A stretch of DNA of 64,000 nt from Planktothricoides raciborskii GIHE-MW2 (GTDB lineage: Bacteria; Cyanobacteriota; Cyanobacteriia; Cyanobacteriales; Laspinemataceae): the NCBI RefSeq assembly GCF_040564635.1, contig NZ_CP159837.1, positions 99,801-163,800 on the forward strand, read 5' to 3'. The translations under genes were made by a program, and so were the position numbers. Of this stretch, positions 1-34,030 are shown in pieces. The first letter of the stretch is position 1. Every line of letters begins with the position of its first letter. The notes under the pieces were generated by a model. That model ran no database searches and was not told where the DNA came from. It saw only the letters and a list, made by a program, of their open reading frames with translations.

Positions 1-8
1 ACCCCGAA

Positions 9-776: not shown

Positions 777-975
777 TTGTTCTGCGATCGCCCAAAAAAT
801 CTCCTCATCTTTTCCGCAGCGAGGGGCGCTTGGACGTAGCGCCCCTACATAATCTGTTGATTTGCTTCTTTGGGCGCAATGCTTGCGCTCCTAGATAAGT
901 TATATTAATCTAAAAAATATTACCAATTTCAAAATAATCCAGAGTCGGTTTTAACCGACTTGCGCTATTAGCCGG

Positions 976-1222
976 GGGTTTTAACCCCTGGGGATTTATC
1001 TACCCCCGCAATTAACCGACGATTGCGGGGATTAAAATCCCCGTAGGGGTCAACGGCCGTTGACCCCTACAGTCGGTTAAAGGGGTTTTAACCCCCGGGG
1101 ATTTATGTACCCCCGCAATTAACCGACGATTGCGGGGATTAAAATCCCCGTAGGGGTCAACGGCCGTTGACCCCTACAGTCGGTTAAAGGGGTTTTAACC
1201 CCCGGGGATTTATCTACCCCCT
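976..1222. repeat. Tandem ~108-bp stacked-palindrome elements (about 2.3 copies)
   Basis: Each unit holds several perfect hairpins, e.g. GTAGGGGTCAACGGCCGTTGACCCCTAC and CCCCGCAAT..ATTGCGGGG. There are no unique spacers between units. Confidence 0.9.
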
Positions 1223-1242
1223 TTACCGATCTTCATTCTCTG

Positions 1243-3564
1243 CTATTCTGCTTCACCAATTAAAGTAAACGCCGCCCAAAAAGAAGGATTGGGATATTGA
1301 TTTTTCATCGTTAACATCGCCTGTCGTAACGCTTGGGCTTTGTTCGGTGTCGTCTGTAAGTTCTGATAAAATTGTACCATCAATTGAGAGGTTGTTCGAT
1401 CATCTACAGCCCATAACGACATCACTAAACTCGGAACTCCTGCATTCAAAAACGAACGAGATAACCCAATCATCCCATCCCCGGTTAACTGTCCAAGTCC
1501 AGTGTCACAGGCACTTAAAACCACTAATTCTGCATTTAATTTTAAGTCAAAAATTTCATCCGCCGTTAATAATCCATCCTCCGAACCCCCAGGAGTTAAC
1601 GCTACGCCACTATTTAAAGGTTGAATATTATCAACAAATCCGTGAGTAGCAAAATGAATAATTCGAGCAGTTTTCAAGCGTTCAACTACCGTTGATTCTG
1701 TTGCATTGGCTCCAATTAAAGCCGAAGTATTGAACATTTTAGCAATCTCAATCGCTTCTTTTTCAGCATAGTGAAGGGGGGCTAACGGTTTAGGTTCTTC
1801 CCCTGGACTCGGTGCAAGTTTCGGCATTTGCGGATTACCCACAATCACAATATCTTGGGCAGAAGAAGATAAATTTTGCCGTTGTTTGTGAGTCGTTTCT
1901 AACACAGTAATGGCAGGAGACATTACAATTGTATGTTTTTCAATTAAGAATTTTCCTTCTTCATCTACCAAAGCAGCAAAAGGTAGATAAAATAAAGCAT
2001 CTGTGGGAACAAAAATCACTCGTTCATCTGGGTTAGTCGGTAATAAATCTTCAATGGGTTTAATTAACAGTTTATGGAGTTCTTTTAACTCTCGATATTG
2101 ATGCGGATTAATATCGATATTCTGTGCTTCTCTTAGAGCATCAGCTTGGGAATTAAATAGAGGACTGCTTGTCAAATTAGAACGAGTTACATTAGAACTA
2201 GCTGAAGCGTTAATAAAATCACTTTTACAGGCATCATTACCAAAGCAACGCGCTGCGAAAATGAGATGACCTAGAGAGGTGTTTTGTTCTTGCCAAAGAA
2301 GTTTAAGATCGGCTTGTCTAAACTCAACTTCTCCAGTGGGCTTAATTACCCAAATATATAATTCTGATTCTCGGTTTTGTTGTTTACGTGAAAATTCATC
2401 GCCAATCCTAGAATATTGAGCAATTGTTGCATTTTGTTGTCGAGCAATGGCTTGGATTTGGGCTAAAGAAACAACCGGAGAAAAGGGTTCTGAATTGGGG
2501 TTGAATCGTTGAGTTAATAACTCGACTAACGCTCTCCCCCGACCTCGTTCAGAAACTTCTAAAGCTGGCTCAGTTTTATTTTGAGCAATTAAAACTTGTT
2601 GAAGCAGATTATAGGAATTGCGTTGAGTGTCGGAAAGAGATACTTTATCGAGGTCGTCTTGAATTCCTTGTCGCAGAGATTCCTTAACTTCGAGACTAGA
2701 AAACAGATATTTTTCATGTTCAGGAAAATTCTTCAATTTAAACAAAGCAAGACCCAAATTATTGAGAGCACTTCCTTCTATATTGCGATCGCCGATTTCA
2801 CGGGCAATAGTTAAAGACGGTTGATAAAACTCAATTGCTTTTTGATATTGTCCTAAGTTATCGTAAGCATTACCCAAATTACCGAGAGAATTTCCTTCTC
2901 CATTGCGATCGCCGATTTCACGGGCAATAGTTAAAGACTGTTGATAAAACTCAATTGCTTTTTGATATTGTCCTAAGCTATTGTAAGCATTACCCAAACC
3001 TATGAGAGCTTTTCCTTCTCCATTGCGATCGCCGATTTCACGGGCAAGAGTTAAAGACTGTTGATAAAACTCTTCTGCTGCTTTTTGATATTGTTCTAAG
3101 CTATAGTAAGCATTACCCAAATTACCGAGAGAATTTCCTTCTCCATTGCGATCGCCGATTTCACGGGCAAGAGTTAAAGACTGTTGATAAAACTCAATTG
3201 CTTTTTGATATTGTTCTAAGCTATAGTAAGCATTACCCAAATTACCGAGAGAATTTCCTTCGCCATTGCGATCGCCGATTTCACGGGCAATAGTTAAAGA
3301 CTGTTGATAAAACTCAATTGCTTTTTGATATTGTCCTAAGCTATCGTAAACATTACCCAAATTATTGAGAGCAGTTCCTTCTATATTGCGATCGCCGATT
3401 TCACGATAAATGTTTAATGCAGTTTCTAAAGACTGAATTGCGGCTTGGTATTGGCTAGTTGTATATTGTTGTCTTCCCTGCTCTAATAATCGGTCTGCTT
3501 CGGCTTTTCGTTCTGTAACTGTTTGGGCGAATACTCCATTACCCATCTCAAATTTTTTCCCCAA
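1243..3564 (-). CDS. TPR-repeat + CHAT-domain (caspase-like) protein, intact copy A
   Basis: The N-terminal half is built of 40-aa TPR-like repeats (EGNSLGNLGNAY..YQKAIEFYQQSLT..AREIGDRNG). The C-terminal CHAT domain has the His/Cys dyad context IIHFATHG and LVVLSACDTGLG. Confidence 0.85.
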   Translation of the reverse strand: MGKKFEMGNGVFAQTVTERKAEADRLLEQGRQQYTTSQYQAAIQSLETALNIYREIGDRNIEGTALNNLGNVYDSLGQYQKAIEFYQQSLTIAREIGDRNGEGNSLGNLGNAYYSLEQYQKAIEFYQQSLTLAREIGDRNGEGNSLGNLGNAYYSLEQYQKAAEEFYQQSLTLAREIGDRNGEGKALIGLGNAYNSLGQYQKAIEFYQQSLTIAREIGDRNGEGNSLGNLGNAYDNLGQYQKAIEFYQPSLTIAREIGDRNIEGSALNNLGLALFKLKNFPEHEKYLFSSLEVKESLRQGIQDDLDKVSLSDTQRNSYNLLQQVLIAQNKTEPALEVSERGRGRALVELLTQRFNPNSEPFSPVVSLAQIQAIARQQNATIAQYSRIGDEFSRKQQNRESELYIWVIKPTGEVEFRQADLKLLWQEQNTSLGHLIFAARCFGNDACKSDFINASASSNVTRSNLTSSPLFNSQADALREAQNIDINPHQYRELKELHKLLIKPIEDLLPTNPDERVIFVPTDALFYLPFAALVDEEGKFLIEKHTIVMSPAITVLETTHKQRQNLSSSAQDIVIVGNPQMPKLAPSPGEEPKPLAPLHYAEKEAIEIAKMFNTSALIGANATESTVVERLKTARIIHFATHGFVDNIQPLNSGVALTPGGSEDGLLTADEIFDLKLNAELVVLSACDTGLGQLTGDGMIGLSRSFLNAGVPSLVMSLWAVDDRTTSQLMVQFYQNLQTTPNKAQALRQAMLTMKNQYPNPSFWAAFTLIGEAE
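2760..3420. repeat. Five near-identical ~120-bp coding repeats (TPR units) inside the CHAT gene
   Basis: The block ttgcgatcgccgatttcacgggcaa(t/g)agttaaagactgttgataaaactc... recurs with a 120-bp period. Copy B has fewer units. Confidence 0.8.
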
Positions 3565-4239
3565 TAGGAGTGGGGAGGGAATTGTTAGGGTTAAACTTGC
3601 TAATAAAGTGAATAAAGTTGTTAATCCTAGACGCGGGTTAATGGTACTGGGGTAGATACTTCAGGTATTAGTATCAATTTAACCTCGTTTTTGGCGAGCG
3701 GCAAGATTATTAAAAAATTGTTATTAAAGTTATTAAAATTTTACATTTTTTTTACCTATCTGCCAGGGAGGGCGGGTTGCTACCTCTTCGCACTTGCGCC
3801 CTGCCTTCCCTGAAACTTTTGTGAATTGGGCATGGCATCTTATTAATGTATGGCGGTAGTCTCGTGGTATAGGACACTTACCAAGCCAAAAGAACTAATA
3901 CCAATTTCAAAAATTATTGCTACAATTTCGGGGTTAATTGGGGCGCTTGCGCTCCTGCCCATTGCGCGGTGGGCGCTTGGACGTAGCCCCCTACCCACTA
4001 CCAATAACTACAGCGATCGCTTATTTGATTGTCCCGGATGTGGTGGGTTACGGCGGAGGAAGCTAAATATTGAAATGTTTTCCGCCAAATTTTCACCGCC
4101 TAACCCACCCTATTAATAACTGCTATAGCAAAATAAAGATGTCGATCCCCCCAACCCCCTCCCCCCTGCCCGTTCGCGAAGCGTGCCGGAGGCATTTGGC
4201 GGTCAAACGGGGGTGAGGGGCTTTGCACGAATTTTGCAA

Positions 4240-4600
4240 GAAGTCTAATATCTTTTGCAGAAGAAGATAAATTTTGCCGTTGTTTGTGAGTTGTTTCTAA
4301 CACAGTAATGGCAGGAGACATTAAAATTGTATGTTTTTCAATTAAAAATTGTCCTTCTTCATCTACCAAGGCAGCAAAAGGTAGATAAAATAAAGAATCT
4401 GTGGAAACAAAAATCACTCGTTCATCCGGGTTAGTGGGTAATAAATTTTCAACTGGTTTAATTAACAGTTGATTTCTTGTAATTCTCGATATTGAGGCGG
4501 ATTAATATGGACATATCGACATTTTGTCTGGCTTGTTCCCGCTCATCAGCCCTGGAATTAAATAAATAACTGCCTTCCAAATTAGAGGAGAGAGGAGAGA
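4240..4600 (-). pseudogene. Internal fragment of a third CHAT-domain gene copy
   Basis: ORF 4100-4417 encodes ...VSTDSLFYLPFAALVDEEGQFLIEKHTILMSPAITVLETTHKQRQNLSSSA, which matches the middle of copy A. The flanking DNA matches 1860-2190. Confidence 0.75.
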
Positions 4601-4699
4601 GGAGAGAGGAGAGAGAATATCTTTCCTATTTACTCTTTCCTATGCCTCCTCTTTCCTCTTTCCTATAATGAAGTCTGTAGTGAATTTATTTATATCGGT

Positions 4700-6583
4700 T
4701 TATAAGATCGTCTTCAAACTTTCCGCTTGTTTATTCAAAGTTTCTACTCCCTGCTTAGTATAACTGATAGCTTTCACACTTTCCGCCGATTTTTGGTTCA
4801 GATCGACCATAATATGCACCAGTTCTTCCATAGAAACTGCTTGTTTTTTCGCATTAAAAGACATTTGTTGATTACTAATAAACACCTCATTGGCTGCCTG
4901 CCGCACGCCACTAAAAGCTTGAGCCGCTTGTTCCGCAATAGTCATCCCAGTTTCCAGGGTTTTTGCCCCCGCTTGGGTGGCTTGAACCGTAGCCGCGATC
5001 GCCCCTTGAAGTTCTGGCACGATCGCATTAATATTTTCTGCTGCCTTCCGACTTTCATCGGAAAGTTTGCGAATTTCGGCGGCCACCACCCCAAAACCCT
5101 GCCCATGTTCACCAGCGCGGACTGCTTCCACCGAAGCATTCAAAGCTAACATATTCGTTTGCTTGGCCAAATCGCTCACCACGCGAGCTAAATTGGTAAT
5201 ATTACCAATCTGAGAGGTTTGACTTCCTAATCGTTGCGCTTGCTGAGAAATAACTGCCACTTTTTCTTGCACCGAAAGCAGCCCCTTCAGAGTTTCTTTT
5301 ACCAAGCTATCTCCCCGATCTGCTAAAGTTAATGACTGCTGGGCATTTTTCGCCACGTTTTCCGCTTCTTGGGCGGTTTGTTGGGCAAATTTTCCCAAAT
5401 CCTCCAGAGTATTGCTAGTATCATTAACCGTTGAAGACTGATGGTATAAAAGGATCTCTTGTTGATTTAACGTTGTCAAAACTTCCAAAGAAAAATTTGA
5501 AATATTATTAATTAAAATTTTTAAGCGATTAATTAATTTACGAATTTGTATAACCGAAAATGGTAAAACAATCGCCAAAGTAATCAAGACAATAGAAACA
5601 TTAAACTTCTTCAAGTCGTCAACTGGTTTAGTAATTTGTTTTCGGTCAGTTTTGAAAATTAATTTTAAATAAGAGTTTTCGTCTTTATTTAAAGGAATAC
5701 CATAAGAGTTAAAAAAAGTATTGTTAAGCGTCAAACCATCAACATCCTGGTTGATGGAGATTAATTTACTGGCTAAATCTGATTGATAATCTTTAAAGAT
5801 TGTTTCATTATGATTTAAATCAAAGCCCCATTGCTTTTCCGGATCTTTATGATATAAATAATATCCATCTTGATTTACTAATATCACTTCAGATGTTTGA
5901 TTAAGGTGGAAATTTTTAATCATATCAAATACAGGTTCAGCGGACACCTTACTCATCAGCATTCCTTTTCTTTGACCCATGACATCAAAAATTGGCATCC
6001 CATAATAAATCACTGGCTGATAAGGAGTAGCGATCGCGCCCCGCTCCTTATTTAATTGTAAGGATGAAGTATAAATTTCGCGAGAATTTAATTTGCTCGT
6101 TTCCTGAAAAAATACTCCATCCGACTTATTTTCTAGCTGATTGGGCGGAGTCGCGGTGATCTTTGTCCCATCTGAATCCACTCTGACCATTTCGTCTCCT
6201 TTTTCATTTAAATAGCGAAGCTCCATATAAGCAGAATTATTTTTCATCGTCGCTTCAAAAATCCCATTCAGTCGTTTTACCCAAATCTCATAAGAAGAGT
6301 TTTGTTGGCGATCGATGCCGCCCGCTTCTCTAGCGCGGATAATTCCTTGAACCGGGGGTACTTCACTTAAAAATAAAAGGTCTTTTTGAAAAATTTGTAT
6401 AAAGTTAACGATTTTTTCCGTATTTTGCACTCCTTGGTTATTCGTCTGCTGTAAATATAAGTCCGTTAAAGCATTGGAGTAAACCGAAATGCTATAACCT
6501 CCCAGAACGAATACCGGAAATAAAATACTACAAATGAGCAGAGACACCAATTGATTTTGGATTTTTTTGAAGAAAGCGTTCAT
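4700..6583 (-). CDS. Methyl-accepting chemotaxis protein with an N-terminal periplasmic Cache-like sensor
   Basis: It has an N-terminal TM segment, a ~300-aa extracytoplasmic region, a second TM and a HAMP. The MCP hairpin-tip signature is present: [36 protein letters not shown]. Confidence 0.85.
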   Translation of the reverse strand: MNAFFKKIQNQLVSLLICSILFPVFVLGGYSISVYSNALTDLYLQQTNNQGVQNTEKIVNFIQIFQKDLLFLSEVPPVQGIIRAREAGGIDRQQNSSYEIWVKRLNGIFEATMKNNSAYMELRYLNEKGDEMVRVDSDGTKITATPPNQLENKSDGVFFQETSKLNSREIYTSSLQLNKERGAIATPYQPVIYYGMPIFDVMGQRKGMLMSKVSAEPVFDMIKNFHLNQTSEVILVNQDGYYLYHKDPEKQWGFDLNHNETIFKDYQSDLASKLISINQDVDGLTLNNTFFNSYGIPLNKDENSYLKLIFKTDRKQITKPVDDLKKFNVSIVLITLAIVLPFSVIQIRKLINRLKILINNISNFSLEVLTTLNQQEILLYHQSSTVNDTSNTLEDLGKFAQQTAQEAENVAKNAQQSLTLADRGDSLVKETLKGLLSVQEKVAVISQQAQRLGSQTSQIGNITNLARVVSDLAKQTNMLALNASVEAVRAGEHGQGFGVVAAEIRKLSDESRKAAENINAIVPELQGAIAATVQATQAGAKTLETGMTIAEQAAQAFSGVRQAANEVFISNQQMSFNAKKQAVSMEELVHIMVDLNQKSAESVKAISYTKQGVETLNKQAESLKTIL

Positions 6584-6880
6584 AACTATTGATTAAGTTC
6601 CCTCTTTAAACCAGGTTTCAGCAATAAGTAGGTGAAGATAATTAATTGCACTTTTCGTTCCCCGCCGATAGGCTTTGAATTCCCGCCTGTAGGAAGGAGA
6701 GAGAATAGAGAATAGAGAATAGAGAATAGAGAATTTTCCTCTTTCCTATGCATCCTCTTTCCTATGCATCCTCTTTCCTCTTTCCTATGCATCCTCTTTC
6801 CTATGCATCCTCTTTCCTCTAATGGGGTCTGTGGTGCATTTATTTCTGCCCGTAAACTTATTAGACAATATTATACAATA

Positions 6881-8671
6881 TTAGACAATACCTTGCAGGG
6901 TTTGAGCCGCTTGGCTGAGTTCTTGGGTGCGGGTTTTCACTTGACTAATTCCCTGAACATTTTCCTGTGCCGATGAGTTCAAGCTATTCATCGCATCGAC
7001 CACTTGTTGAATGGCCGTCACCTGCTGTTCTGCGTTCAAGGAAATTTGCTGGCAACTTAGGACCATATCATTAATCGCATTGCTGACCCCAGAAAAAGCT
7101 TTCTCTGTCTCTTGGGCAATTTTTACTCCGTCTTCTACAGTTTTTGTCCCTTCATCAGTCACCATTACCGTGAGGTCAATAGAATTTTGGATATCTGCTA
7201 CTAATGTATTAATTTTTTCAGCGGAATTTTTGCTTTGGTCGGCGAGTTTACGAATTTCACTGGCCACCACCCCAAATCCCTTACCATGTTCGCCAGCCCG
7301 AACTGCTTCCACGGAAGCATTCAGGGCTAACATATTGGTTTGGTTGGCTAGGTCAGCCACAATGGTGGAAATATTGCCAATTTGATTGGTTTGTTGGCTG
7401 AGTCGCATAATTTGTTGCGCGATCGCCCCAACCTTTTCCCGGAGAGTATTCATCCCTTCGAGGGTATCTTCTACCGCATTACTGCCTTGCTTGGACAAAT
7501 TTAACGCCTGACGAGCTCCGTGAGCGGATCCTTCCGCTTGCTCTGCGGACTGTCGAGCGGAATTATTCAACTCATTCATAGTGCTAGTTGTTTGATTCAC
7601 CGCCATCGCTTGTTGGCTGGTACTGCGTTCTTGCTGTTCCATTGTGCTGGCAATTTCTACCGATGATTCGGCGATGACATTGGCAATTTCCGTAATCGTG
7701 CGGGTAGTGCGATTGGCAAATAAAGCCGCAATAATGCTCACCACTACAGAGGTGATTATCACCACCACAGTCAATACCCAAAACAACTGTTTTTCTGTAG
7801 CAAAAACTTCTTTCGTATCGTGAGTGACAACCACACTCCAGTTAAGGTTAGCTACTTCGGCGATCGCGGGTATAGGGATATAAGTGATCAGTATATTTTC
7901 CTTGGTGGCAGGATTAAACAATTCTTGACTGATGCTTTGCTTATTTTGGGATAACTGGCGAAATTCGGGAATCTGATTCTCAATTTTTTGCCCCACTAGA
8001 CTCTGGTTACTAGAGAGAAATATACTCCCTTCCCCATCAATGAGATGATAATTTTCACTCTGAAATTTTTCCGAGGCTTCCGCTAATCGTTCCGCAGCGA
8101 AGCTCAAGACTTTTGTCAACTCTTTTACCGGCATAAGTGTACGCACCACGCCCATCGGCTGTGAACTGTTGATATTCCGTAAAGGTGCGGCCATAAGAAT
8201 GACATACTCACCTCCTTGTTCTCTGCGTTTGACAACGGTGATTTGATTGGTGCGTTGGACTTGCTGAAAATAGTCTTCGTTGCTAATGTTAGAGACAGCA
8301 GATCCCTGGGTTTGTAACATGACTTTGCCGGTGAGGTCAGAGACCAAGATGCTTTGATACATCCCATAAGATTGGCGAAAGTTTTCCATCAGCGCATTCA
8401 GTGGATTATATGTTCTCCCGGAAACGACTTTTTGATCGTTGAAAATACCCAAACCAGAGATAACTTTCAGATCGTTGACCCGTTCGCTGGTCAGTTGATG
8501 GATGCGATTGCTGATGCCAATTGCCAGAGTTTTTTGATAGCGAATAACTCCAGTTTTAATCGTTGGGTTGGTGATCCAATAAGCGATCATTCCGGTGGCG
8601 ATTACCGGGATAGTTCCCAGGGCGATGGCAAAGATAATTGATTGATTTCTTAGAGACATTTTATAAGACAT
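6881..8671 (-). CDS. Methyl-accepting chemotaxis protein (paralog of 4700-6583)
   Basis: It has the same architecture as the preceding MCP. The MCP signature is [35 protein letters not shown]. Confidence 0.85.
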   Translation of the reverse strand: MSYKMSLRNQSIIFAIALGTIPVIATGMIAYWITNPTIKTGVIRYQKTLAIGISNRIHQLTSERVNDLKVISGLGIFNDQKVVSGRTYNPLNALMENFRQSYGMYQSILVSDLTGKVMLQTQGSAVSNISNEDYFQQVQRTNQITVVKRREQGGEYVILMAAPLRNINSSQPMGVVRTLMPVKELTKVLSFAAERLAEASEKFQSENYHLIDGEGSIFLSSNQSLVGQKIENQIPEFRQLSQNKQSISQELFNPATKENILITYIPIPAIAEVANLNWSVVVTHDTKEVFATEKQLFWVLTVVVIITSVVVSIIAALFANRTTRTITEIANVIAESSVEIASTMEQQERSTSQQAMAVNQTTSTMNELNNSARQSAEQAEGSAHGARQALNLSKQGSNAVEDTLEGMNTLREKVGAIAQQIMRLSQQTNQIGNISTIVADLANQTNMLALNASVEAVRAGEHGKGFGVVASEIRKLADQSKNSAEKINTLVADIQNSIDLTVMVTDEGTKTVEDGVKIAQETEKAFSGVSNAINDMVLSCQQISLNAEQQVTAIQQVVDAMNSLNSSAQENVQGISQVKTRTQELSQAAQTLQGIV

Positions 8672-9066
8672 TACTCTAGATTACATTGATTTATAGCCAG
8701 CGGAGCCTGCGGATTTATTTGGTGAAATTTTTTGCCCAAAAAAAATCCAAGCCCGCAACTACCACACCGCAGATATGTATTAATCTTCAGTGTTTATGAT
8801 AGTCTATAATCTTAGCATATTTAGTTATGAATCGTTAAGTTTTATAAAATAATTATCAAAAAACTTAAATTATGTTACCTGAGATAAAAGCAAAGCCACT
8901 GAGCAGACTAATTTTGGTAAATGGCCGGCTAATTGGGTGACTATCGCCCTGGCTTTAGAGCCTAAAATTTAAAATTAGACCATAAAAATATAACGGACAA
9001 ATCTCGCCTTTCTCGGAGGGAGAGTCTGGGGAATATCTGGGGTCTGGGGAATATCTGGGGAATAGA

Positions 9067-10479
9067 TTAAACTGCCCGATCGCCCAAAAAAGACTTTAAG
9101 TGCCAAGCTAATTGGTGCAGTTTTTGGATTTGAATCGTTGTTTCAGCGATGCCACAAGCCATAGTCATACCGATTTCCTCTAATTGCTCTTTAGAATCCA
9201 ACAGTTGCTCGCTATTAGCCGCTTGCTGTTGGCTAGACAACGCCAATTGTGAAATCTGAATTTTAATTTGTTCACACAGAATCAACAGGCGATCGCTCAA
9301 TTCACTAGGACTGGTGAATCCATCATGGCTGATTAAATCCGGGCTGATTGGGTATTGATTGTTTCCCCCCCAACTGGGGGCATAAAAAGAGATATTCGAG
9401 GCCAGATTCGCCGATTCACCGACAATTTGATTCAGTGTGCGATCCAGTTTTTGCGCGTAATTGGTTATATTTTTAAGTTCGGTATTTAAAAACAAAAACA
9501 TTCGATAATTTTCTGTATATTTATGGCCAATTTTCAGGCTAATATTAAGGGAAAGTTTTTTGCTGTAATCCACTAGGCGATCGCTAATTTCCCGGAGAGA
9601 TTTAATCTGCTGAAGCTGAGAACGAACTTCGCTCAAATGTATGGAAAGTTCGGCAAAATCTCGATCGATGGATGTGGAATTTTCCCTGGATAACTGGCAA
9701 AATTCACGTAATTCTTGCAGTTGAGGCGTGGTGAGACTCAATATCTGGGCTTGATTTTGGCCACTCTGTTGGTGATCGTTCATTTCTTGGACGATCGCCC
9801 CTGAAGATTTTACTATGGGTTCAAGCAACTGCTTCGCCTTGCCCAAAATGCGATCGGCCATCACCAAACCCAGGGCGATCGCCAACAGGGAAAAAATCAA
9901 AGTCGCCAAAGCCCCCAGGAACACTAACTGCCGCATTGAAGTATTAACTGCTTGGATTTTTAGCGACTCTGCGTGAATTTCGGCCATTCTCACCCGCTCA
10001 ATTTCTGCGGTTAATGCTAACCAAATTTGCCGACTTTCATCCGCACCAATAGCCCGAATCGCCTGGTCAGTTTTTCCGGATGCGATCGAAGCTAAAATAT
10101 ATTGATTTAAATCATTTAATTCTTTAGCCAGGAGCAAAATTTTTTGTCCCGAATTTGCCGATTCGAGCGGCATATCTGTTTTCCGTTGCTCCCAAACAGC
10201 GATCGCATTGTTCAATTGCCGCAAATTGACATCATAAGACTCAAGAAAAACCTGGTCTTTTGTACTAACATAGCCCAAGATAGATTCTTGGAGTTTAATT
10301 TTAGCCTCAGACAGTTGATTTGCCAGTAAGTTTTGGCTAATTTCTGGGGTTTGGTGGGCAAATTTTTGAGCATTCAGGTAAAAGTAAGCAGGGGCGATCG
10401 CTCCAGGAATACTTAAAAACACCAGATAAACTAAATAAGACAAAAAAATGCGGGATTTCAGCGTTAAATTAGCCAACAT
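9067..10479 (-). CDS. Two-TM sensor protein with a CHASE3-like periplasmic region and a coiled-coil cytoplasmic tail; possibly a degenerate MCP
   Basis: TM1 (IFLSYLVYLVFLSIP) is followed by a ~150-aa periplasmic region and TM2 (LVFLGALATLIFSLLAIALGLV), then a long coiled coil. The canonical MCP tip is absent; only a degenerate SLNISLKIG stretch remains. Confidence 0.35.
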   Translation of the reverse strand: MLANLTLKSRIFLSYLVYLVFLSIPGAIAPAYFYLNAQKFAHQTPEISQNLLANQLSEAKIKLQESILGYVSTKDQVFLESYDVNLRQLNNAIAVWEQRKTDMPLESANSGQKILLLAKELNDLNQYILASIASGKTDQAIRAIGADESRQIWLALTAEIERVRMAEIHAESLKIQAVNTSMRQLVFLGALATLIFSLLAIALGLVMADRILGKAKQLLEPIVKSSGAIVQEMNDHQQSGQNQAQILSLTTPQLQELREFCQLSRENSTSIDRDFAELSIHLSEVRSQLQQIKSLREISDRLVDYSKKLSLNISLKIGHKYTENYRMFLFLNTELKNITNYAQKLDRTLNQIVGESANLASNISFYAPSWGGNNQYPISPDLISHDGFTSPSELSDRLLILCEQIKIQISQLALSSQQQAANSEQLLDSKEQLEEIGMTMACGIAETTIQIQKLHQLAWHLKSFLGDRAV

Positions 10480-10936
10480 GATTCTCCTAGAAATGGCACA
10501 TTAGCCCTTGTGAACTGAGTAAGCATTGCCAGTCAATTCCTTTATTCGAGGATAATCCGCCATTATCCGTATTCTGGTCTAGATTTAATTTTGTTGTTGG
10601 TTGTTGGTTGTTGGGTAGGGATTCTTTGTTGGTTGGGGAACGGGGAACAGTTATCGGGGAACGGGGAAAGTGAAAAGTTAAAAGTGAAAAGTGATGCATT
10701 GAAAAGTCGTAGGGGCTTTCTGGCCATATAGCCTGACGGATTATGCTTCGCAAGGACGCCCGTACAAGTGAAAAGTTAAAAGTGAAAATTCGTAGGGGCT
10801 TTCTGGCCATATAGCCTGACGGATTATGCTTCGCAAGGAAGCCCGTACAAAAGAAGTATCACTATTCACTATCTACTATTGACTATTAATTATTAACTAT
10901 TTATTATTTAATATTCGTTATTTACTATTTATTATT

Positions 10937-11139
10937 CACTATTCCCTGTTCCCTGTTCCCTGTTCCCTGTTCCCTATTCCCTGTTCCCTATTCCCTGTTC
11001 CCTATTCCCTGTTCCCTGTTCCCTGTTCCCTATTCCCTGTTCCCTATTCCCTGTTCCCTATTCCCTGTTCCCTGTTCCCTATTCCCTGTTCCCTATTCCC
11101 TGTTCCCTATTCCCTGTTCCCTGTTCCCTATTCCCTGTT
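10937..11139. repeat. Heptanucleotide array (TTCCCTG/TTCCCTA)n of about 28 copies, STRR-like
   Basis: The array is read directly. The complementary heptamer GGGAACR appears about 300 bp upstream at 10620-10650. A ~62-bp direct duplication at 10670-10860 lies between the two. Confidence 0.9.
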
Positions 11140-11297: not shown

Positions 11298-11311
11298 TGC
11301 TTCGCCCTTAA

Positions 11312-19575: not shown

Positions 19576-19655
19576 TTTGATTTCAATTACAGATCCAATT
19601 ACAGATCCAATTACAGATCCAATTACAGATCCAATTACAGATCCAATTACAGATG
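19576..19655. repeat. 12-mer tandem repeat (ATCCAATTACAG) x about 7
   Basis: The repeat is read directly and lies between the MCP start and the cheW stop. Confidence 0.9.
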
Positions 19656-22776: not shown

Positions 22777-22777
22777 C

Positions 22778-24346: not shown

Positions 24347-24404
24347 CTGTTTCTGATTAGAGAGCGGTGTAGCGAATTTTTAACGGAGATGATCGCGAAA
24401 TCGT

Positions 24405-26020: not shown

Positions 26021-27796
26021 TTAATCTACTAATAGTTTTTTCATATACTTTAATAAATCTTCGACTTTGATTTGATCATCTTCCCGGCCAATCCAGGTAT
26101 TAATCGGCATTTTTTCTAACAAAAAAATTACATTAATTCTCATTTTCTTGGCTCTAGTAAAATCCCCTTCTTTTTCGTAAAGTTCTGCAATTTGCAAATA
26201 AGCATCAATTGAAGAAGGAAATAAATAGATAATTTTTCTTAAAATAGACTTAGCCGTATCCACATCTCCTTTTTCTTCCGCGATGCCTGCCATCAGATAA
26301 TAAGGTTCAATCCAGTTATAGTTTAGTTTAATTGCCTGATGACAATATTTTTCGGCTTCTAGATAGTTCCCTAAATTGGCAAAAGTTTTCGCCAGCAGAT
26401 AATAAGCTTCACAATTGTTCGGATCTACACTAATTATTTTTTTGGCGATTTTAATGACTTCAGAATATTGATGGGTTTTAAACAGTAAATTGAGTTCTTC
26501 CAGTTTGACATCCACGGATGTTTCCGCTGACGAGAGGCTGACCTCTGATTCTAAAGCCCCTAATTCCAAGGGTTCCGCAATGGGCGGCACGATACTCAAG
26601 GATAAAGAATCGTGAGGGCTGCCCGAAGCAATTGGCGTCATATTTGCATCCAGCTTGGGATTGATTAAATGATGTTTCAACCGAGAGTTGTGGGCTTTCG
26701 GGTGATGGGTGGGATGTAAGTAAGATGAAGATAACGAGTTAGAAAAATCAGCCGATCGCCCATTAGGGAGATCCACTGCGATCTGACCTTTGTGTGGCAG
26801 TTGTAGTTCTCCGGTATGTCCCGGATGGGTGTCTACAAAGTCTGACACTAAGGGTCGTTGATAAACCACCGATTCCGGAAAAACTTTCGTCGAAAACCCA
26901 TCAAGTTGCTGACCATAAAGTTCTGCATGGGCAGTGAACAAATAGCCCCCCGGTCTTAAGGTCTGATAAAATTTTCTCAGCACATGGGCGATCGCCTCCG
27001 CTTCAAAATAGACAAAAACATTGCGGCAGACAATCAAATCTATATTAGCGATATCGGCGCTAAAATCTGGGAAATTATCCTTGACTAAATTACCATATTC
27101 AAACTTGACTAACTGCTTAATTGAATCTTTGATTTGCCAGCCACTTTTTCCCGGAATAAAATAAGAATTTTTTTTCTGCTCATCCACGGTGCGAAATGAC
27201 CAAGAACCATATAGTCCTTTTTTGGCTTTTTTGATCGAATCGCTATTAATATCCGTGCCTACAATATGCAGATGCCAAAATTGCCAATCGGGAATTATTT
27301 CTGTGAGTAAAATCGCCAAAGAATAAGGTTCTTCACCCGTTGAGCAGCCCGCACTCCAGATTCGCAAGGTAGGCCGATCTTTTCCCTGTTGCTGCCAGAC
27401 TTTTCTTTGCTCGGCAATTAATTCGGGCAAAATGATATTCTTTAACAATAAAAATTGACCAGAATCTCTAAAAAAATAACTTTCTCCAGTGGTCAACAGT
27501 TGCAGCAGTTCTTTCCATTCCTTTTGACCGCCCATTTCTGATGATAGCCCATTATCACCATTGTCCATCGCCGGTTTCAAAGGATAAGAAAAAGGAGAAG
27601 AAAGCTGTAATTGGATTCGATTTTGGTAAGTATCTTTGCTTAAAAGCTGATAATACTCTTCTAAAGAAGATAATTTTAAGGCGTTGACACGCACCAAAAG
27701 CTTTCTCTGTAAAGTGTGCCAATCTTGGGGGCGAATGAATAACCCCGTATTATGGGCAATGATTTTAACAAAATGCTCGATTAAAAATTGATTCAT
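26021..27796 (-). CDS. CheR-type methyltransferase fused to a C-terminal TPR domain (FrzF/WspC-like)
   Basis: The N-terminal half is a CheR domain (FFRDSGQF, RIWSAGCSTGEEPYSLAILL, VCRNVFVYF). The C-terminal ~200 aa are TPR repeats (AYYLLAKTFANLGNYLEAEKYCHQAIKLN...). Confidence 0.8.
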   Translation of the reverse strand: MNQFLIEHFVKIIAHNTGLFIRPQDWHTLQRKLLVRVNALKLSSLEEYYQLLSKDTYQNRIQLQLSSPFSYPLKPAMDNGDNGLSSEMGGQKEWKELLQLLTTGESYFFRDSGQFLLLKNIILPELIAEQRKVWQQQGKDRPTLRIWSAGCSTGEEPYSLAILLTEIIPDWQFWHLHIVGTDINSDSIKKAKKGLYGSWSFRTVDEQKKNSYFIPGKSGWQIKDSIKQLVKFEYGNLVKDNFPDFSADIANIDLIVCRNVFVYFEAEAIAHVLRKFYQTLRPGGYLFTAHAELYGQQLDGFSTKVFPESVVYQRPLVSDFVDTHPGHTGELQLPHKGQIAVDLPNGRSADFSNSLSSSYLHPTHHPKAHNSRLKHHLINPKLDANMTPIASGSPHDSLSLSIVPPIAEPLELGALESEVSLSSAETSVDVKLEELNLLFKTHQYSEVIKIAKKIISVDPNNCEAYYLLAKTFANLGNYLEAEKYCHQAIKLNYNWIEPYYLMAGIAEEKGDVDTAKSILRKIIYLFPSSIDAYLQIAELYEKEGDFTRAKKMRINVIFLLEKMPINTWIGREDDQIKVEDLLKYMKKLLVD

Positions 27797-27880
27797 TAGA
27801 ATAGTTTTTTAATGGCGTTTAATAAAGGTAAGCTTCTGGCTTTTTTATACCAACTCATCCAAAAAAAATTGTGCGACAGC

Positions 27881-27965
27881 GATCAAATTAAGAATTCAAA
27901 TTAAGAATTCAAATTAAGAATTCAAATTAAGAATTCAAATTAAGAATTCAAATTAAGAATTCAAA
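27881..27965. repeat. 14-mer tandem repeat (AAGAATTCAAATTA) x6
   Basis: The repeat is read directly. Confidence 0.9.
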
Positions 27966-28183
27966 CTAAAAACCAAGAGTTAGGTATTCTATCAGAGGCA
28001 ACATAGCGGCCATAATCTAGGATACTCAAACGACACCGCGCATCAGCCCTCTGAGGTTCGCACACCCCTTTGAGGTCTAATTGGCCTAATTATTTAGGCA
28101 CTGCCTTGAGATCCTACCAAGGATTGCATTCAATGTTTCTCATTCCCGATCGCACTCTTTGACTATTTATAACAAAAAATGGC

Positions 28184-28357
28184 GATGTTTTAGCCAAGAT
28201 GTTTTAGCCAAGATGTCTTAGCCAAGATGTCTTAGCCAAGATGTCTTAGCCAAGATGTCTTAGCCAAGATGTCTTAGCCAAGATGTCTTAGCCAAGATGT
28301 CTTAGCCAAGATGTTTTAGCCAAGATGTTTTAGCCAAGATGTTTTAGCCAAGATGTT
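28184..28357. repeat. 13-mer tandem repeat (GCCAAGATGTYTTA) x about 13, abutting or overlapping the truncated 3' end of tnpB
   Basis: The repeat is read directly. Confidence 0.9.
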
Positions 28358-29720
28358 GACGGCGATCTTCGAGACAATCGAGGGTAAGGTGCTGGGGATG
28401 TTTGAAGCCAGAGTATTTTAGCTGCTCCACTTGGGGAAACCCCAAGACCGCACAGGCTCCCCAAGTCAGCATACTTCTGACTGTTTTAGACCTAATTTTT
28501 CTTCTTGACTTGGCTACCATAAGGGAAGACTCAAAGCGAGGTAGAAAAATTAATCCATAGTTATTAGTCAGGTAATGGGCTGCTTTTTTATGCACTTCGT
28601 CAATTAAGTTTTGGATCTTTTCTCGAATCCGATTAGCCGCTTTTCTCATGGAACGGCGTCGTTTGGCATTCACTTTAGTCGAGCGACTAATTAAATCATA
28701 TTCGTGTTGACATCATCGAGTAATTCGACCCATGTCGCCGTTGCCAATTTCAATGACTCGATCGCCGTCATACCCAGTCAAAAAAGTTCTGACCCCAGGG
28801 TCTAAGGCAATTATTTTCCTTGAAGATGTATGACTTTTAATTACAGGTTCAGGAAAAACAGCGAACCATTTACCACGCCGATAAGTCAATTGAGTGCCAT
28901 AATCCCATTTATCTGGTATAGGTTCACTTGCCTTAAACTTAAGCGTATTTGTTAACCTGCTATACCATGTTCCTTTGGTGAAATTGTCATCATTGAATTT
29001 GATGGTCTGTCGGGGGTTACGGACACTTCGGAATCGGGCATCACGGCTCGCTTTATAGGCTTGATGTGCGTCAAAGATAGCATTTTGTCTGATATGGCAA
29101 GGCGTTTCTTTAACCCACTGAGGTAAATCCGATTGCATGACCAGATTTCGCAATTTTAGCTTACCAATCCGAGTCGTTGATTGACGCTGCATGGCGATCG
29201 CTTGGTTAAAACAATAACGGCAAGCCGCCCGCCATTTTTTCCAAATTTTTTCCAGTTCAGGACTGGGATAAATCCGGATCTTCTTTGATTGCAGACTTAT
29301 ATTTTGTAAGTCTGTAGAGTTGGCGACTGAAGATGTGAACAATGGCAAGGATGTCCTCAACCAATTCTCGTTCTGGGGATAAACTGTCTTGGTTGAGAAC
29401 CAAGATTTTTGTGCCGTCAAGTTCACACAACCAGGAAATGAGATCAAACCCGAAACGGACAAGTCTGTCTCTGTGGGCAACCACAATAAATCCGACATCG
29501 CCTTGACGGACTCGCTCCAAAATGGCTCTAAGTCCTTTTCTTTTGAAATTAAGACCACTGGCGATATCAGTGACGAGCTCGGCGTTAGGGTAGAGTTCGA
29601 GTAATTTTGCAGCTTGGCGATCGAGGTCTGCTTTTTGTCCACGGCTTGAAACGCGGGCGTAAGCGATAATTGCCCGTTGCGTTCTCTCGTTTGAAATTCC
29701 CGTGTAAGACGCAATATCAT
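28344..29720 (-). pseudogene. tnpB: TnpB (OrfB, RuvC-like) split into two ORFs and lacking the zinc finger and RuvC-III
   Basis: ORF 28713-29720 has the N-terminal region and RuvC-I (IALDPGVRTFLTGYDGD). ORF 28344-28673 has the RuvC-II region (RRKIRSKTVRSMLTW). After that the sequence runs into the 13-mer array. Confidence 0.7.
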
Positions 29721-29844
29721 ATCGCCTCTGCCCTGATGGTGTTCTTATGGCTTGAATCTTGCCGTCTCTTTCCCATCTTCTTAGGGTATGTAAGCATACA
29801 CCAAAGTATTGAGAGGTTTCACTTGGTGATGTATATTTCGGCAT
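29257..29844 (-). CDS. tnpA: IS607-type serine-recombinase transposase TnpA
   Basis: It has an N-terminal HTH plus a resolvase-domain catalytic Ser context YARVSS. Confidence 0.8.
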   Translation of the reverse strand: MPKYTSPSETSQYFGVCLHTLRRWERDGKIQAIRTPSGQRRYDIASYTGISNERTQRAIIAYARVSSRGQKADLDRQAAKLLELYPNAELVTDIASGLNFKRKGLRAILERVRQGDVGFIVVAHRDRLVRFGFDLISWLCELDGTKILVLNQDSLSPERELVEDILAIVHIFSRQLYRLTKYKSAIKEDPDLSQS

Positions 29845-29960
29845 TTAGCTCGCTTGTTGTGTACTCGTCTAGCTTAACGCAATTGTTCAGCTTTGTCAAT
29901 CGTTGTTCAGTGAATTGGCGCGCCAGGAAGAGACTCTATGATTGATCCTGCATCCGGGCT

Positions 29961-30402
29961 TTAGGCGATTGCTGGGGAACCGACGGGCAAGTTTTCTGTC
30001 GAACTTTGTTGCAAGTATTTTTTAACAATTTCCAGAACTTGATGGAGGTCGGGTGGTTTGGATAAAAAGTCCGACGCCCCATTCAATTTAGCTTTGGTTC
30101 GATCCATTAATCCATTTTGGCTGGTTAGAATAATAATCGGCGTGTCCCTAAACAAAGAACTCTGCCGTAAAACAGCTACATACATTATAACCGCTGGTTT
30201 GCGGCATGACCACATCTAGAAAAATCAAATCCGGTTTTTCTTCGGCCAGCTTGGCAAATCCCTGCATTGGGTTATTAATTTTTAGGACTCTAAACCCGGC
30301 GGGTTGCAAAATTTGCTCCAATCTTTCGGCAGTTATCGGGCTATCATCAATACAGGCAATTAAAGGTTTTTTCCTGGGTAGTTTTAAGGCTGAACGCACC
30401 AA
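29961..30402 (-). pseudogene. CheY-like receiver domain split by a frameshift
   Basis: ORF 30148-30402 has PLIACIDDSPITAERLE..DLIFLDVVMP. ORF 29961-30215 has TPIIILTSQNGLMDRTKAKLNGASDFLSKP. Together they make one REC domain in two frames. Confidence 0.6.
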
Positions 30403-30539
30403 TAAGAATTGTTCTATAGGAGAGGGAATATCGGCGGGAGTCGTCAGGGATATTTTACCAGCTTTAATGAAATAATCTAGGGCTGGAGACAGGGTTTAAA
30501 TTTCTGACTAAAGTTGGTTAAACTTACTCGTTTTTTTTG

Positions 30540-31150
30540 CTATCATAAGGTTATGAGTAAGTTTAGTATTTACGAAGCAGCAAAAATTATGCAGAGTATC
30601 ACCATCTACATTAAGACGTTGGGAATCAGAAGGGAAATTAATCCCTGAGCGTAGAGGGTCTGGTCATCGGAGACACTCTATGTCTCAATTACTGGCTGTT
30701 GAATCTCATAGAGCCTATACAATCGGTTATGCACGAGTCAGTAGTCACGACCAGAAACAAGACCTAGAACGTCAAAAGGAAATTATTGAATTGTTCTGCG
30801 CTCAAAATGGCTGGGAGCATGAAATTATCCAAGATTAACAACTTACTTAGCCAAGAATCACGGTGAAGTCAAAATCGAAGACTTAAATGTGTCAGGGATG
30901 CTAAAAAATCACAAGCTGGCTGGTGCTATTGCTGATGGTGGGTTTTATGAGTTTCGTCGTCAGCTTGAGTATAAATGCGAGTGGTATGGGAGCAAATTAA
31001 CGCTGATTGACCCCTGGTATCCCAGTTCACAGATATGTTGCAATTGCGGACACCGACAAAAAATGCCACTAGATCAAAGACAGTATGATTGTCCGAACTT
31101 TCACATCTCACTCTTATCGTGACTTAAATGCGGCAATTAAATTAATTTAG
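30540..31150 (+). mobile_element. Internally deleted second IS607-family copy (TnpA N-terminus joined to TnpB C-terminus), opposite strand
   Basis: 30540-30838 encodes MSKFSIYEAAKIM... then, after a frameshift, AYTIGYARVSSHDQKQDLERQKEIIELF. 30840-31150 encodes the TnpB C-terminus: KIEDLNVSGMLKNHKLAGAIADGGFYEF...CCNCGH...DCPN, another frameshift, then RDLNAAIKLI. Confidence 0.7.
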
Positions 31151-31194
31151 AAAACGCGGATAGTTCAGCCGTGTAAGCAAGCGTGATGGAAAGG

Positions 31195-31315
31195 CATCAG
31201 TATAGACACCGGACAAAGCCCAAACGTTACGACAAGCGATGTTAACGATGAAAAATCAAAATCCCAATCCTTATTTTTGGGCGGCATTTGCTTTAATGGG
31301 TCAAGCAGAATAATA
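31195..31315 (+). pseudogene. 3' fragment of a CHAT-domain gene (C-terminal 32 codons)
   Basis: It translates to QAQTLRQAMLTMKNQNPNPYFWAAFALMGQAE*. Compare the copy A C-terminus KAQALRQAMLTMKNQYPNPSFWAAFTLIGEAE*. Confidence 0.75.
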
Positions 31316-34030
31316 TCTCCCCAATCCCAGGTAGGTTTTCTTTTACTACTATCAACATAGAGGTAGCAACCCGCCCTCCCTGGCAGATAGGTAAAAAAAA
31401 TGTAAAATTTTAATAAATTTAATAACAATTTTTTAATAATATTGCCGCTCGCCAAAAACGAGGTTAAATTGATACTAATACCTGAAGTATCTACCCCAGT
31501 ACCATGAACCCACGTCTAGGATTAATCGCTTTATTCACTTTATTAACCAGTTTAACCCTAACAATTCCCTCTCCACTCCTATTGGGGAAAAAATTTGAGA
31601 TGGGTAATGGAGTATTCGCCCAAACAGTTACAGAACGAAAAGCCGAAGCAGACCGATTATTAAATCAGGGAAGACAACAATATACAACTAGCCAATACCA
31701 AGCCGCAATTCAGTCTTTAGAAACTGCATTAAACATTTTCCGTGAAATCGGCGATCGCAATGAAGAAGGAAATGCTCTCATAGGTTTGGGTAATGCTTAC
31801 AATAGCTTAGGACAATATCAAAAAGCAGCAGAAGAGTTTTATCAACAGTCTTTAACTATTAAACGTGAAATCGGCGATCGCAATGGAGAAGGAAATGCTC
31901 TCATAGGTTTGGGTCTTGCTTACAGTGACTTAGGACAATATCAAAAAGCAATTGAGTTTTATCAACAGTCTTTAACCATTGCCCGTGAAATCGGCGATCG
32001 CAATGGAGAAGGAACTGCTCTCTATAATTTGGGTCTTGCTTTGTTTAAATTGAAGAATTTTCCTGAACATGAAAAATATCTGTTTTCTAGTCTCGAAGTT
32101 AAGGAATCTCTGCGACAAGGAATTCAAGACGACCTCGATAAAGTATCTCTTTCCGACACTCAACGCAATTCCTATAATCTGCTTCAACAAGTTTTAATTG
32201 CTCAAAATAAAACTGAGCCAGCTTTAGAAGTTTCTGAACGAGGTCGGGGGAGAGCGTTAGTCTAGTTATTAACTCAACGATTCAACCCCAATTCAGAACC
32301 CTTTTCTCCGGTTGTTTCTTTAGCCCAACTCTAAGCAATTGCTCGACAACAAAATGCAACAATTGTTCAATATTCTAGGATTTCCGATGAATTTTCACGT
32401 AAACAACAAAACCTAGAATCAGAATTATATATTTGGGTAATTAAGCCCACAGGAGAAGTTGAGTTTAGACAAGCCGATCTTAAACCCCTTTGGCAAGAAC
32501 AAAACACCTCTCTAGGTCATCTCATTTTCGCAGCGCGTTGCTTTGGTAATGATGCCTGTAGAAGTGATTTTATTACCGCTTCACCTAGTTCTAATGTAAC
32601 TCGTTCTAATTTGACAAGCAGTCCTCTATTTAATTCCCAAGCTTATGCTCTAAGAGAAGCACAGAATATCGATATTAATCCGCATCAATATCGAGAGTTA
32701 AAAAAACTCCATAAACTGTTAATTAAACCCATTGAAGATTTATTACCGACTAACCCAGATGAACGAGTGATTTTTGTTCCCACAGATGCTTTATTTTATC
32801 TACCTTTTGCTGCTTTGGTAGATGAAGAAGGAAAATTCTTAATTGAAAAACATACAATTTTAATGTCTCCTGCCATTACTGTGTTAGAAACAAGTCACAA
32901 AAAACGGCAAAATTTATCTTCTTCTGCCCAAGATATTGTGATTGTGGGTAATCCGCAAATGCCGAAACTTGCACCGAGTCCAGGGGAAGAACCTAAACCG
33001 TTAGCCCCCCTTCACTATGCTGAAAAAGAAGCGATTGAGATTGCTAAAATGTTCAATACTTCGGCTTTAATTGGAGCCAATGCAACAGAATCAACGGTAG
33101 TTGAACGCTTGAAAACTGCTCGAATTATTCATTTTGCTACTCACGGATTTGTTGATAATATTCAACCTTTAAATAGTGGCGTAGCGTTAACTCCTGGGGG
33201 TTCGGAGGATGGATTATTAACGGCGGATGAAATTTTTGACTTAAAATTAAATGCAGAATTAGTGGTTTTAAGTGCCTGTGACACTGGACTTGGACAGTTA
33301 ACCGGGGATGGGATGATTGGGTTATCTCGTTCGTTTTTGAATGCAGGAGTTCCGAGTTTAGTGATGTCGTTATGGGCTGTAGATGATCGAACAACCTCTC
33401 AATTGATGGTACAATTTTATCAGAACTTACAGACGACACCCAACAAAGCCCAAGCGTTACGACAAGCGATGTTAACGATGAAAAATCAATATCCTGATCC
33501 TTATTATTGGGCGGCGTTTACTTTAATAGGTGAAGCAGAATAGCAGAGAATGAAGATCGGTAAAGGGGGTAGATAAATCCCCGGGGGTTAAAACCCCTTT
33601 AACCGACTGTAGGGGTCAACGGCCGTTGACCCCTACGGGGATTTTAATCCCCGCAATCGTCGGTTAATTGCGGGGGTACATAAATCCCCGGGGGTTAAAA
33701 CCCCTTTAACCGACTGTAGGGGTCAACGGCCGTTGACCCCTACGGGGATTTTAATCCCCGCAATCGTCGGTTAATTGCGGGGGTACATAAATCCCCGGGG
33801 GTTAAAACCCCTTTAACCGCCTGTAGGGGTCAACGGCCGTTGACCCCTACGGGGATTTTAATCCCCGCAATCGTCGGTTAATTGCGGGGGTACATAAATC
33901 CCCGGGGGTTAAAACCCCTTTAACCGCCTGTAGGGGTCAACGGCCGTTGACCCCTACGGGGATTTTAATCCCCGCAATCGTCGGTTAATTGCGGGGGTAC
34001 ATAAATCCCCGGGGGTTAAAACCCCCGGCT
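31312..34030. repeat. Right arm of the inverted duplication (promoter region, CHAT-TPR copy B, palindromic tandem units)
   Basis: See the left arm. Copy B has about 4.5 of the 108-bp palindromic units versus about 2.3 on the left, and fewer TPR units. Confidence 0.85.
31504..33543 (+). pseudogene. TPR+CHAT protein copy B, interrupted by two in-frame stop codons
   Basis: ORFs 31504-32265 and 32611-33543 are collinear with copy A. In the same frame, ALV*LLTQ and AQL*AIARQ replace ALVELLTQ and AQIQAIARQ. Confidence 0.75.

Follow-up and report, generated by a model that had tools for sequence, protein, structure and literature searches.

Reversed orientation of a chemotaxis-like gene cluster between inverted copies of a Planktothrix-like TPR-CHAT gene in Planktothricoides raciborskii

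How a long run of chemotaxis-like genes came to lie against the direction of the genes on either side of it is the question raised by a locus of Planktothricoides raciborskii GIHE-MW2. The locus was analysed within a stretch of 64,000 nucleotides (nt), termed the window (RefSeq assembly GCF_040564635.1, contig NZ_CP159837.1, positions 99,801 to 163,800 of the forward strand), and the coordinates below count from its first letter unless another contig is named. In it a block of 25.9 kb on the minus strand (4641-30492; 14 genes and one IS607 element, Pfam) lies between two arms that are reverse complements of each other, each built around a copy of a gene for a TPR-CHAT protein. A preliminary description made from the letters alone had offered two readings of this layout, a flip-flop segment or a fixed inversion left by homologous recombination between the arms. 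Comparison with relatives now supports the view that the window lineage carries a derived inversion of this cluster, and the inverted state is apparently fixed rather than flipping. On balance it is probable that the inversion came about by homologous recombination mediated by the arms, after a foreign CHAT gene had been taken up. The rearrangement is real and of an ordinary, well-known kind, and no new mechanism is involved.

The segment is reversed with respect to two relatives which between them hold both un-inverted joints, and its flanks are unchanged. The closer of the two, L027, is the metagenome-assembled genome (MAG) Oscillatoriales cyanobacterium S07.Bin090 of record JAABRM01, the single close relative in the species-representative genome collection, whose genes elsewhere are 88-90% identical to those of the window at the nucleotide level. 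The other, L056, is the 45-kb JGI contig Ga0612058_0768 from a more distant relative, reached through its SLT protein (80% identical); the nucleotide identities that mark the depth of the two lineages are about 89% and about 78%, respectively. A gap-free run of L027 (no N) carries on one strand an MCP470-like gene, MCP596, MCP627, two MCP genes, MCP475, the CheA-REC hybrid and the GT-C glycosyltransferase gene. Its nucleotide identity to the window is 75% for the MCP-like gene (window 10635-9079), 94% for MCP596 and 92.6% for MCP627, and L027 9668-16072 is collinear with the right flank of the window (MCP475, CheA-REC, GT-C) at 77-86%. Likewise on one strand, L056 carries SLT, patA, CheR, a TPR open reading frame (ORF), CheW-CheW, an MCP gene (464 aa), CheY and CheA, with an SLT-patA spacer of 777 nt and a full-length patA (429 aa, PatA_N and REC). 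Its DNA follows the window from 8 to 775 in the forward direction and then from 30477 down to 20744 in reverse, the window SLT gene (9-776) being homologous to L056 1163-1930 at 79% nucleotide identity.

Each relative shows one joint, and no CHAT gene is present at the joint in L027 or at that in L056. The co-directional un-inverted order foreseen in the preliminary description was thereby seen at its joints once synteny with related genomes was checked, the recombination itself staying a matter of interpretation. For one joint, homology to the relatives ends at window positions 776 and 30492, and for the other at 4640 and 34689, leaving two stretches of lineage-specific breakpoint DNA (777-4640 and 30493-34688) in which the arms and the fragments of CHAT genes are located; both breakpoints therefore fall in the DNA that holds the arms.

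The comparison also gives a clear polarity: foreign DNA, insertion-sequence debris and a truncated patA make up the joints of the window, against intact genes and plain spacers in the relatives, so that the window state is the derived one. The patA-type receiver fragment of the window (30492-29961, minus; ORF 30402-29961) is frameshifted and 5'-truncated, retaining only residues 241-416 of the L056 protein, and its truncation point abuts a remnant of IS607 type. This degraded remnant (about 30500-31150, plus; ORF translations and sequence) consists of an N-terminal piece of TnpA (30680-30838, plus) and a C-terminal piece of TnpB (30889-31122, plus). CHAT fragments aside, it is the lone plus-strand item between the arms and lies just inside the right one; the earlier statement that a uniformly minus-strand block stands between plus-strand flanks was accurate for the functional genes (4700-30492, all minus) and had missed this remnant.

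The arms that enclose the block were delimited by alignment. Window 975-3043 matches 33811-31740 as a reverse complement with 97.3% identity over 2073 nt, and 3108-3787 matches 32041-31359 in the same manner with 92.6% identity over 685 nt, the outer limits of similarity falling at 904-911 on the left and 34089-34096 on the right. Matches of such length and identity cannot be chance, and the limits first proposed for them (835-3800 and 31312-34030) were right to within about 70 nt of the aligned ones (904-3787 and 31359-34096). The left arm forms one CHAT unit on the minus strand (904-3787; repeat alignment and Pfam). It is composed of a head (3643-3787), the TPR-CHAT ORF (1243-3564, with the frame open up to 3642; Pfam) including its 120-nt TPR units (2745-3405), 2.3 copies of a 107-nt palindrome unit (975-1221) and a tail (904-974), all minus. 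The right arm (31359-34096, plus; repeat alignment) consists in turn of a head (31359-31503, plus), a TPR-CHAT pseudogene (31504-33543, plus) with stops at 32263-32265 and 32332-32334, and 4.3 copies of the palindrome unit (33565-34025, plus).

Alignment and Pfam (CHAT 1e-77, TPR_12 6e-52 on the arm gene) agree with the earlier observation that each arm holds the same head, TPR-CHAT gene and stacked-palindrome units. The left arm is about 360 nt longer than the right because it has three more 120-nt TPR units. The non-repeat part of the arms (1.5 kb) is 98.2% identical between them, and the list of differences leaves a stretch of about 540 nt (window 1883-1346) without any. The head common to both arms begins GAGGTAGCAACCCGCC and the short arm tail ends TTTTGAAATTGGTAATATT; on the right side, 143-nt repeats of the tail continue as far as 34364. 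Downstream of the arm gene, the 107-nt units are stacked perfect and nested palindromes, such as GTAGGGGTCAACGGCCGTTGACCCCTAC, which fold much more stably than shuffled sequences do (z = -11.9). These units have no further copy in the window and none in the Planktothrix loci, and an Rfam scan of window 1-42000 gave no match, which places them in no described RNA family. The G+C content of the arms (38-41%) is slightly below that of most of the block; this is not decisive and was not used as evidence.

The origin of the repeated gene adds to the preliminary description, in that the repeat is a foreign gene, probably derived from Planktothrix. All best matches of the CHAT protein, which belongs to a large TPR-CHAT family (5753 matches at E<=1e-60), are Planktothrix proteins at 78-91% identity, and the next outside that group reach at most 72%. 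Two Planktothrix loci were compared in detail, L065 from P. agardhii and L066 from assembly GCA_947495855.1, and in both the TPR-CHAT gene has housekeeping genes around it, with hemA on one side and trpA on the other. The left-arm stretch 3725-1244 of the window and its L065 counterpart agree at 93.8% over 2492 nt, and for the right arm the value is 93.9%; the 1.5-kb non-repeat part of the arms is 96.0-96.4% identical to L065 and L066, with about 96% at third codon positions. The identity of the arms to Planktothrix (93.8-96.4%) exceeds that of window genes to the sister MAG (88-90%), which shows a recent transfer of the gene between genera; as a contrasting case, the best 120 matches of the zeta-carotene desaturase (ZDS) include no Planktothrix protein and are all at least 83% identical, bar one partial match at 69%. 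On this evidence the TPR-CHAT gene is to be read as horizontally acquired. The direction of transfer was probably from Planktothrix, since the gene has a stable locus there and is absent at the joints of the Planktothricoides relatives.

Beyond the ORF, similarity to Planktothrix extends over only about 80 nt on the upstream side. Both arms have in common the head of 62 nt and the palindrome tail, neither of which was found in Planktothrix, and the arms therefore arose by duplication within the genome rather than by two transfers. The CHAT genes that stand beside ZDS in the sister MAG (L070) were considered as a source of the arms and rejected, as tblastn gave no match at E<1e-5. Within Planktothrix, the non-repeat part of the TPR-CHAT gene is 98.6% identical between L065 (5918-8405) and L066 (9918-12525), and the adjacent hemA only 93.1%; the gene thus seems to have been exchanged recently within that genus too.

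Further pieces of CHAT units lie at the edges of the arms. Fragment X, a decayed unit in tandem upstream of the left arm (3889-4586, minus), comprises a tail-like piece (3889-3929, minus) and a mid-gene piece (4247-4586, minus) whose identity is 91% with the arms (over 4247-4508) and 85% with Planktothrix (over its whole length); the ORF at 4100-4417 gives a weak CHAT match. Fragment Z corresponds to the final 108 nt of the CHAT gene (31205-31312, plus; 92% to 1244-1351) and sits 46 nt upstream of the head of the right arm, and fragment W is an N-terminal piece of a further unit (34459-34582, plus; 83-85% to 3498-3619). All three are in tandem with an adjacent full CHAT unit, read in the sense direction, and bring the number of whole or partial CHAT copies inside 34 kb to five. 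Fragments at the arm edges had been noticed before and are indeed present. They had been taken as a sign of repeated recombination, and are better read as the remains of tandem CHAT units because each is in tandem with a neighbouring full unit.

Both full copies look damaged as genes. The right-arm copy has two in-frame stop codons and is therefore a pseudogene. The left-arm copy has ATT at the position of the ATG with which the right copy starts a signal-peptide-like N-terminus, and the same ATT is present in the left arms of all other strains examined.

Taken in order, the events may be pictured as follows. The ancestral arrangement would have read, on one strand, SLT, patA-REC, CheR-TPR, CheW-W, MCP, CheY, CheA, CheW, MCP, HEAT, CheR, CheB, the MCP genes, MCP475, CheA-REC and GT-C. 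A TPR-CHAT gene would have been taken up horizontally from a Planktothrix-like donor and would then have gained its local flanks, namely a head of 62 nt and, at the other end, a tail built from 107-nt palindrome units. Amplification in the genome may next have produced tandem units and two oppositely oriented sites, one between MCP627 and MCP475 and the other between SLT and patA; at the latter, an IS607-type element and a deletion would have removed the 5' half of patA. General homologous recombination of the RecA type between the inverted 2.5-2.9-kb copies could then have flipped the intervening DNA, after which gene conversion would probably have kept the arms 97-98% alike even as they decayed as genes. 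Of the possible mechanisms, recombination between the homologous arms is the most likely; a substrate of 2.5-2.9 kb including about 540 nt without a difference is ample for RecA.

The distribution of differences between the arms bears on these later stages. With Planktothrix as outgroup, changes derived in the right arm (both stops included) fill the centre of the gene, and a cluster of six left-arm-derived changes, confined to 66 nt at its 3' end (1345-1280), is polymorphic between strains; two right-arm-derived alleles are found in the left arms of other strains. Such a mosaic fits ongoing gene conversion between the copies.

Other assemblies of the species were consulted for the phase of the block. 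Contigs of Planktothricoides sp. SR001 (GCA_001276715.1, LIUQ01), for which LIUQ00000000 is given as the accession in its genome paper (PMC5460452), are about 99.5% identical to the window in nucleotides, and the window ZDS is 100% identical to an NCBI protein labelled 'MULTISPECIES [Planktothricoides]'. The arms are present at both junctions in SR001, a FACHB strain and several metagenomes. Short-read assemblies, without exception, break or have runs of N within the TPR array of an arm, and the SR001 block is a separate 28.6-kb contig with both ends in arms. Two JGI scaffolds, L001 and L002, cross the left arm through N runs in the TPR array, both in the orientation of the window; in them the left head is connected with central alleles of the left type, and L001 extends into SLT. 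L001 was weighed as independent proof of orientation and downgraded to scaffold-level support, because its N run lies inside the arm. No contig within the species places SLT beside the patA side or MCP627 beside MCP475, which is weak evidence as short-read contigs cannot cross the arms. Nor was any strain encountered that combines both arms with the un-inverted order. A search for arm-crossing contigs with the fragment-X ORF returned one 3-kb contig, the patA fragment had no recorded entry, and a scan of JGI metagenome contigs with MCP627 returned distant relatives only (at most 41% identity). The SLT match P0001/L057 (94% identical) is on a contig that ends before the gene downstream of SLT.

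Several observations weigh against a single, arm-mediated and fixed inversion. The model supplies no route by which a gene lacking a transposase could have arrived at a second, inverted site at a distance of 26 kb, and the derived changes give no simple switch between inner and outer parts of the arms and hence no direct sign of a crossover. The orientation is taken from one assembly and the two scaffold links with N runs, with no other gap-free crossing of an arm, and each relative shows one of the two joints only. The L027 joint has two extra MCP genes without a counterpart in the window, and a further break of synteny is present at 41805/41856, between the GT-C gene and an M23 peptidase gene. 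Several events have therefore shaped the region, and to speak of one clean inversion simplifies its history.

Among the other explanations, the flip-flop named at the outset is unlikely, though worth keeping in view. Recombination would be continual, and chromosome copies or cells would show both orientations at appreciable frequency; the RecA-dependent inversion of segments between kilobase-scale repeats has a measurable rate, and cyanobacteria are often polyploid. The length and identity of the arms (2.5-2.9 kb, 97-98%, about 540 nt free of differences) would permit it, and the mosaic alleles in the arms of other strains show copies that still interact. Against this, both scaffolds that bridge an arm are in the phase of the window, the contigs of the species contain no alternative joint (a weak point, as short-read contigs cannot cross the arms), and no functional gain from flipping is visible, since the flip moves no promoter and the block already begins with a truncated gene. 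A related proposal, by which the unit of head, gene and palindrome tail is a mobile cassette without its own transposase that travels between cyanobacterial genera and inside genomes, seeds kilobase inverted repeats and so keeps the cluster flipping in populations, is quite improbable; hints of it are the 96% identity across genera, the 98.6% identity between Planktothrix assemblies set against 93% for hemA, and the five copies in 34 kb. A programmed switch in the style of phase variation, with a site-specific invertase acting on short sites in the arms to flip the segment, is hardly credible. An intact serine-recombinase gene (IS607 TnpA, 29257-29844) does lie inside the block, yet it belongs to an IS607 element without counterpart in L056, the repeats measure kilobases (2.5-2.9 kb) rather than tens of bases, and the segment has neither a promoter at its edges nor a gene that would be switched by the flip.

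A duplicative inversion, in which one event starting from a lone CHAT site would have made an inverted copy of the unit and flipped the segment as well, is decidedly unlikely, with intramolecular replicative transposition or a fold-back or template-switch repair event as the candidates. It would account at one stroke for the same foreign unit at both breakpoints, and agrees with the lack of a CHAT gene at the junction shown by either relative and with the IS607-type debris at the inner edge of the right arm. The arms, however, encode only TPR-CHAT and no transposase; by eye they show no terminal inverted repeats, the head and tail sequences being mutually unrelated, and no inverted target-site duplication (flanks 3788.., 34097.., ..31358 and ..903), and decayed CHAT fragments at both sites (X and W at one, Z at the other) point to longer residence at each. 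IS607 elements use a serine recombinase and are not known to form replicative cointegrates. As a repair-type event, the duplicative inversion retains some probability. It is very improbable that the block was merely misoriented in assembly between near-identical 2.9-kb repeats, the true genome being co-directional like the relatives. Short-read assemblies do break or leave N gaps in the TPR array, which makes orientation hard to determine, but in the window 660 nt of 120-nt tandem TPR units are read through without a gap, suggesting long reads, and the left head is connected with left-type central alleles in two independent JGI scaffolds, one of them running on into SLT. Equally hard to accept is the reverse polarity, with the window orientation ancestral and one or more inversions in the relatives. 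These are two only, with one junction each, which leaves the idea some room; it would nevertheless require parallel changes in both lineages, which differ in depth (about 89% and about 78%), and the relatives have an intact patA and simple joints against the acquired DNA, insertion-sequence remnants and truncated gene of the window.

The preferred reading, a fixed inversion by recombination between the arms, has parallels among known systems. Bacterial chromosomal inversions between inverted rrn operons, insertion-sequence copies or paralogous genes share with it the near-identical repeats at the breakpoints, the order reversed with respect to relatives and the lack of need for a dedicated recombinase; here, in contrast, the repeat is an acquired TPR-CHAT gene followed by a palindrome array, with decay under way in either copy. 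The flip-flop of plastid and herpesvirus genomes likewise involves a unique segment between kilobase inverted repeats kept alike by gene conversion, but is defined by coexisting isomers, whereas here one orientation is known, the arms are 2-3% diverged and the number of TPR units differs. Inversions by replicative transposition, as in the IS26 and Tn3 families, resemble the locus in having the same insert, inverted, at both ends and absent at the relatives' joints, and differ from it in that the arms have no transposase, terminal inverted repeats or target duplications. The arm gene has the domain architecture of other TPR-CHAT proteins of filamentous cyanobacteria (PF12770 with TPR_12/TPR_10 arrays), which are often multi-copy and are discussed as NLR-like conflict or regulated-proteolysis proteins. 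Its role here is that of a recombination substrate and not of a product, with stops in one copy and the ATG lost in the other. In PADLOC, the CHAT protein and the HEAT protein of the block match generic TPR and HEAT models only, and no known defence system was found.

The locus is a well-documented example of the way in which an acquired, non-transposable gene can act as the substrate of a large rearrangement, one that splits a long co-directional chemotaxis-like run of a bloom-forming cyanobacterium into oppositely oriented parts. It also records very recent gene flow between Planktothrix and Planktothricoides, genera that share reservoirs as their habitat (PMC5460452). Caution is called for in annotation and assembly, the block being bounded by repeats beyond the reach of short reads, and the pseudogenes of the region (patA, one MCP gene, the right-arm CHAT copy and tnpB) should be heeded.

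On the minus strand, the block is read as truncated patA-REC, IS607, CheR-TPR, CheW-CheW, a frameshifted MCP gene, CheY and CheA, followed by CheW, a soluble MCP, a HEAT-repeat protein, CheR, CheB, an MCP-like gene, MCP596 and MCP627. The frameshifted MCP gene (24346-23277, minus) is split with respect to its 464-aa L056 orthologue, residues 143-237 being in one frame and 205-464 in another, and is also split in SR001 and JGI contigs. The IS607-family insertion between the truncated patA and CheR-TPR (28344-29900, minus) has the features of its family, a TnpA with MerR-type helix-turn-helix and serine-recombinase domains followed by TnpB. Its TnpA is intact (29844-29257, minus; MerR 2.5e-8, Resolvase 5e-20) and its TnpB broken (29720-28344, minus; HTH_OrfB_IS605, with a Cas12f/TnpB-like match); in L056 only 393 nt separate patA and cheR. 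The element differs from the degraded IS607-type remnant beside the right arm. The unmoved flanks are, on the left, the 3' part of the SLT lytic transglycosylase gene (9-776, plus; Pfam SLT 1e-32) and, on the right (34689-41805, plus; Pfam, collinear with L027), MCP475 (35045-36472, plus), the CheA-REC hybrid (36743-39781, plus) and the GT-C/PMT_2 glycosyltransferase gene (39835-41805, plus).

A few minor features were observed in and around the block. The HEAT-repeat protein (PBS-lyase type, 999 aa; 13517-16516, minus) is encoded between an MCP gene and CheR/CheB, and its best PADLOC match is the generic HEAT-ARM model. Perfect or near-perfect tandem repeats occupy four spacers of the block (10861-11139, 19584-19654, 27883-27969 and 28184-28356), made up respectively of the heptamer TATTCCC in 29 copies, a 12-mer in 6, a 13-mer in 6.7 and a 14-mer in 12.4 copies; several short-read contigs and the L027 scaffold end at such repeats. 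In a metagenomic contig 98.7% identical to the window, ERZ4201039 NODE_1592 (L003), positions 1-9710 are joined to window 6861-3199, so that MCP627 and the inner part of the left arm adjoin genes for GFA, glycogen phosphorylase, a cNMP-binding protein and a helicase instead of MCP596. The switch falls exactly at the MCP596 stop codon, beside a small GC-rich palindrome, and the contig represents either a third arrangement in another strain or a chimera.

The GT-C/PMT_2 gene of the right flank contains a 15-nt in-frame tandem repeat (40476-40607, plus; 8.8 copies) encoding EINSP, and the lengths of its product in different strains (656, 647 and 638 aa, with one call of 372 aa) indicate that the copy number varies. 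From 41855 onward, L070 (MAG S07.Bin090) and L067/L068 match the window at 86-96% nucleotide identity, and upstream of that point the relatives have different genes, either other CHAT, DUF1822 and ThiF genes or glycosyltransferases. Farther to the right, window 52674-60374 (minus) holds an ORF of 2566 aa, whose counterpart in the FACHB strain is listed with Laminin_G_3 domains.

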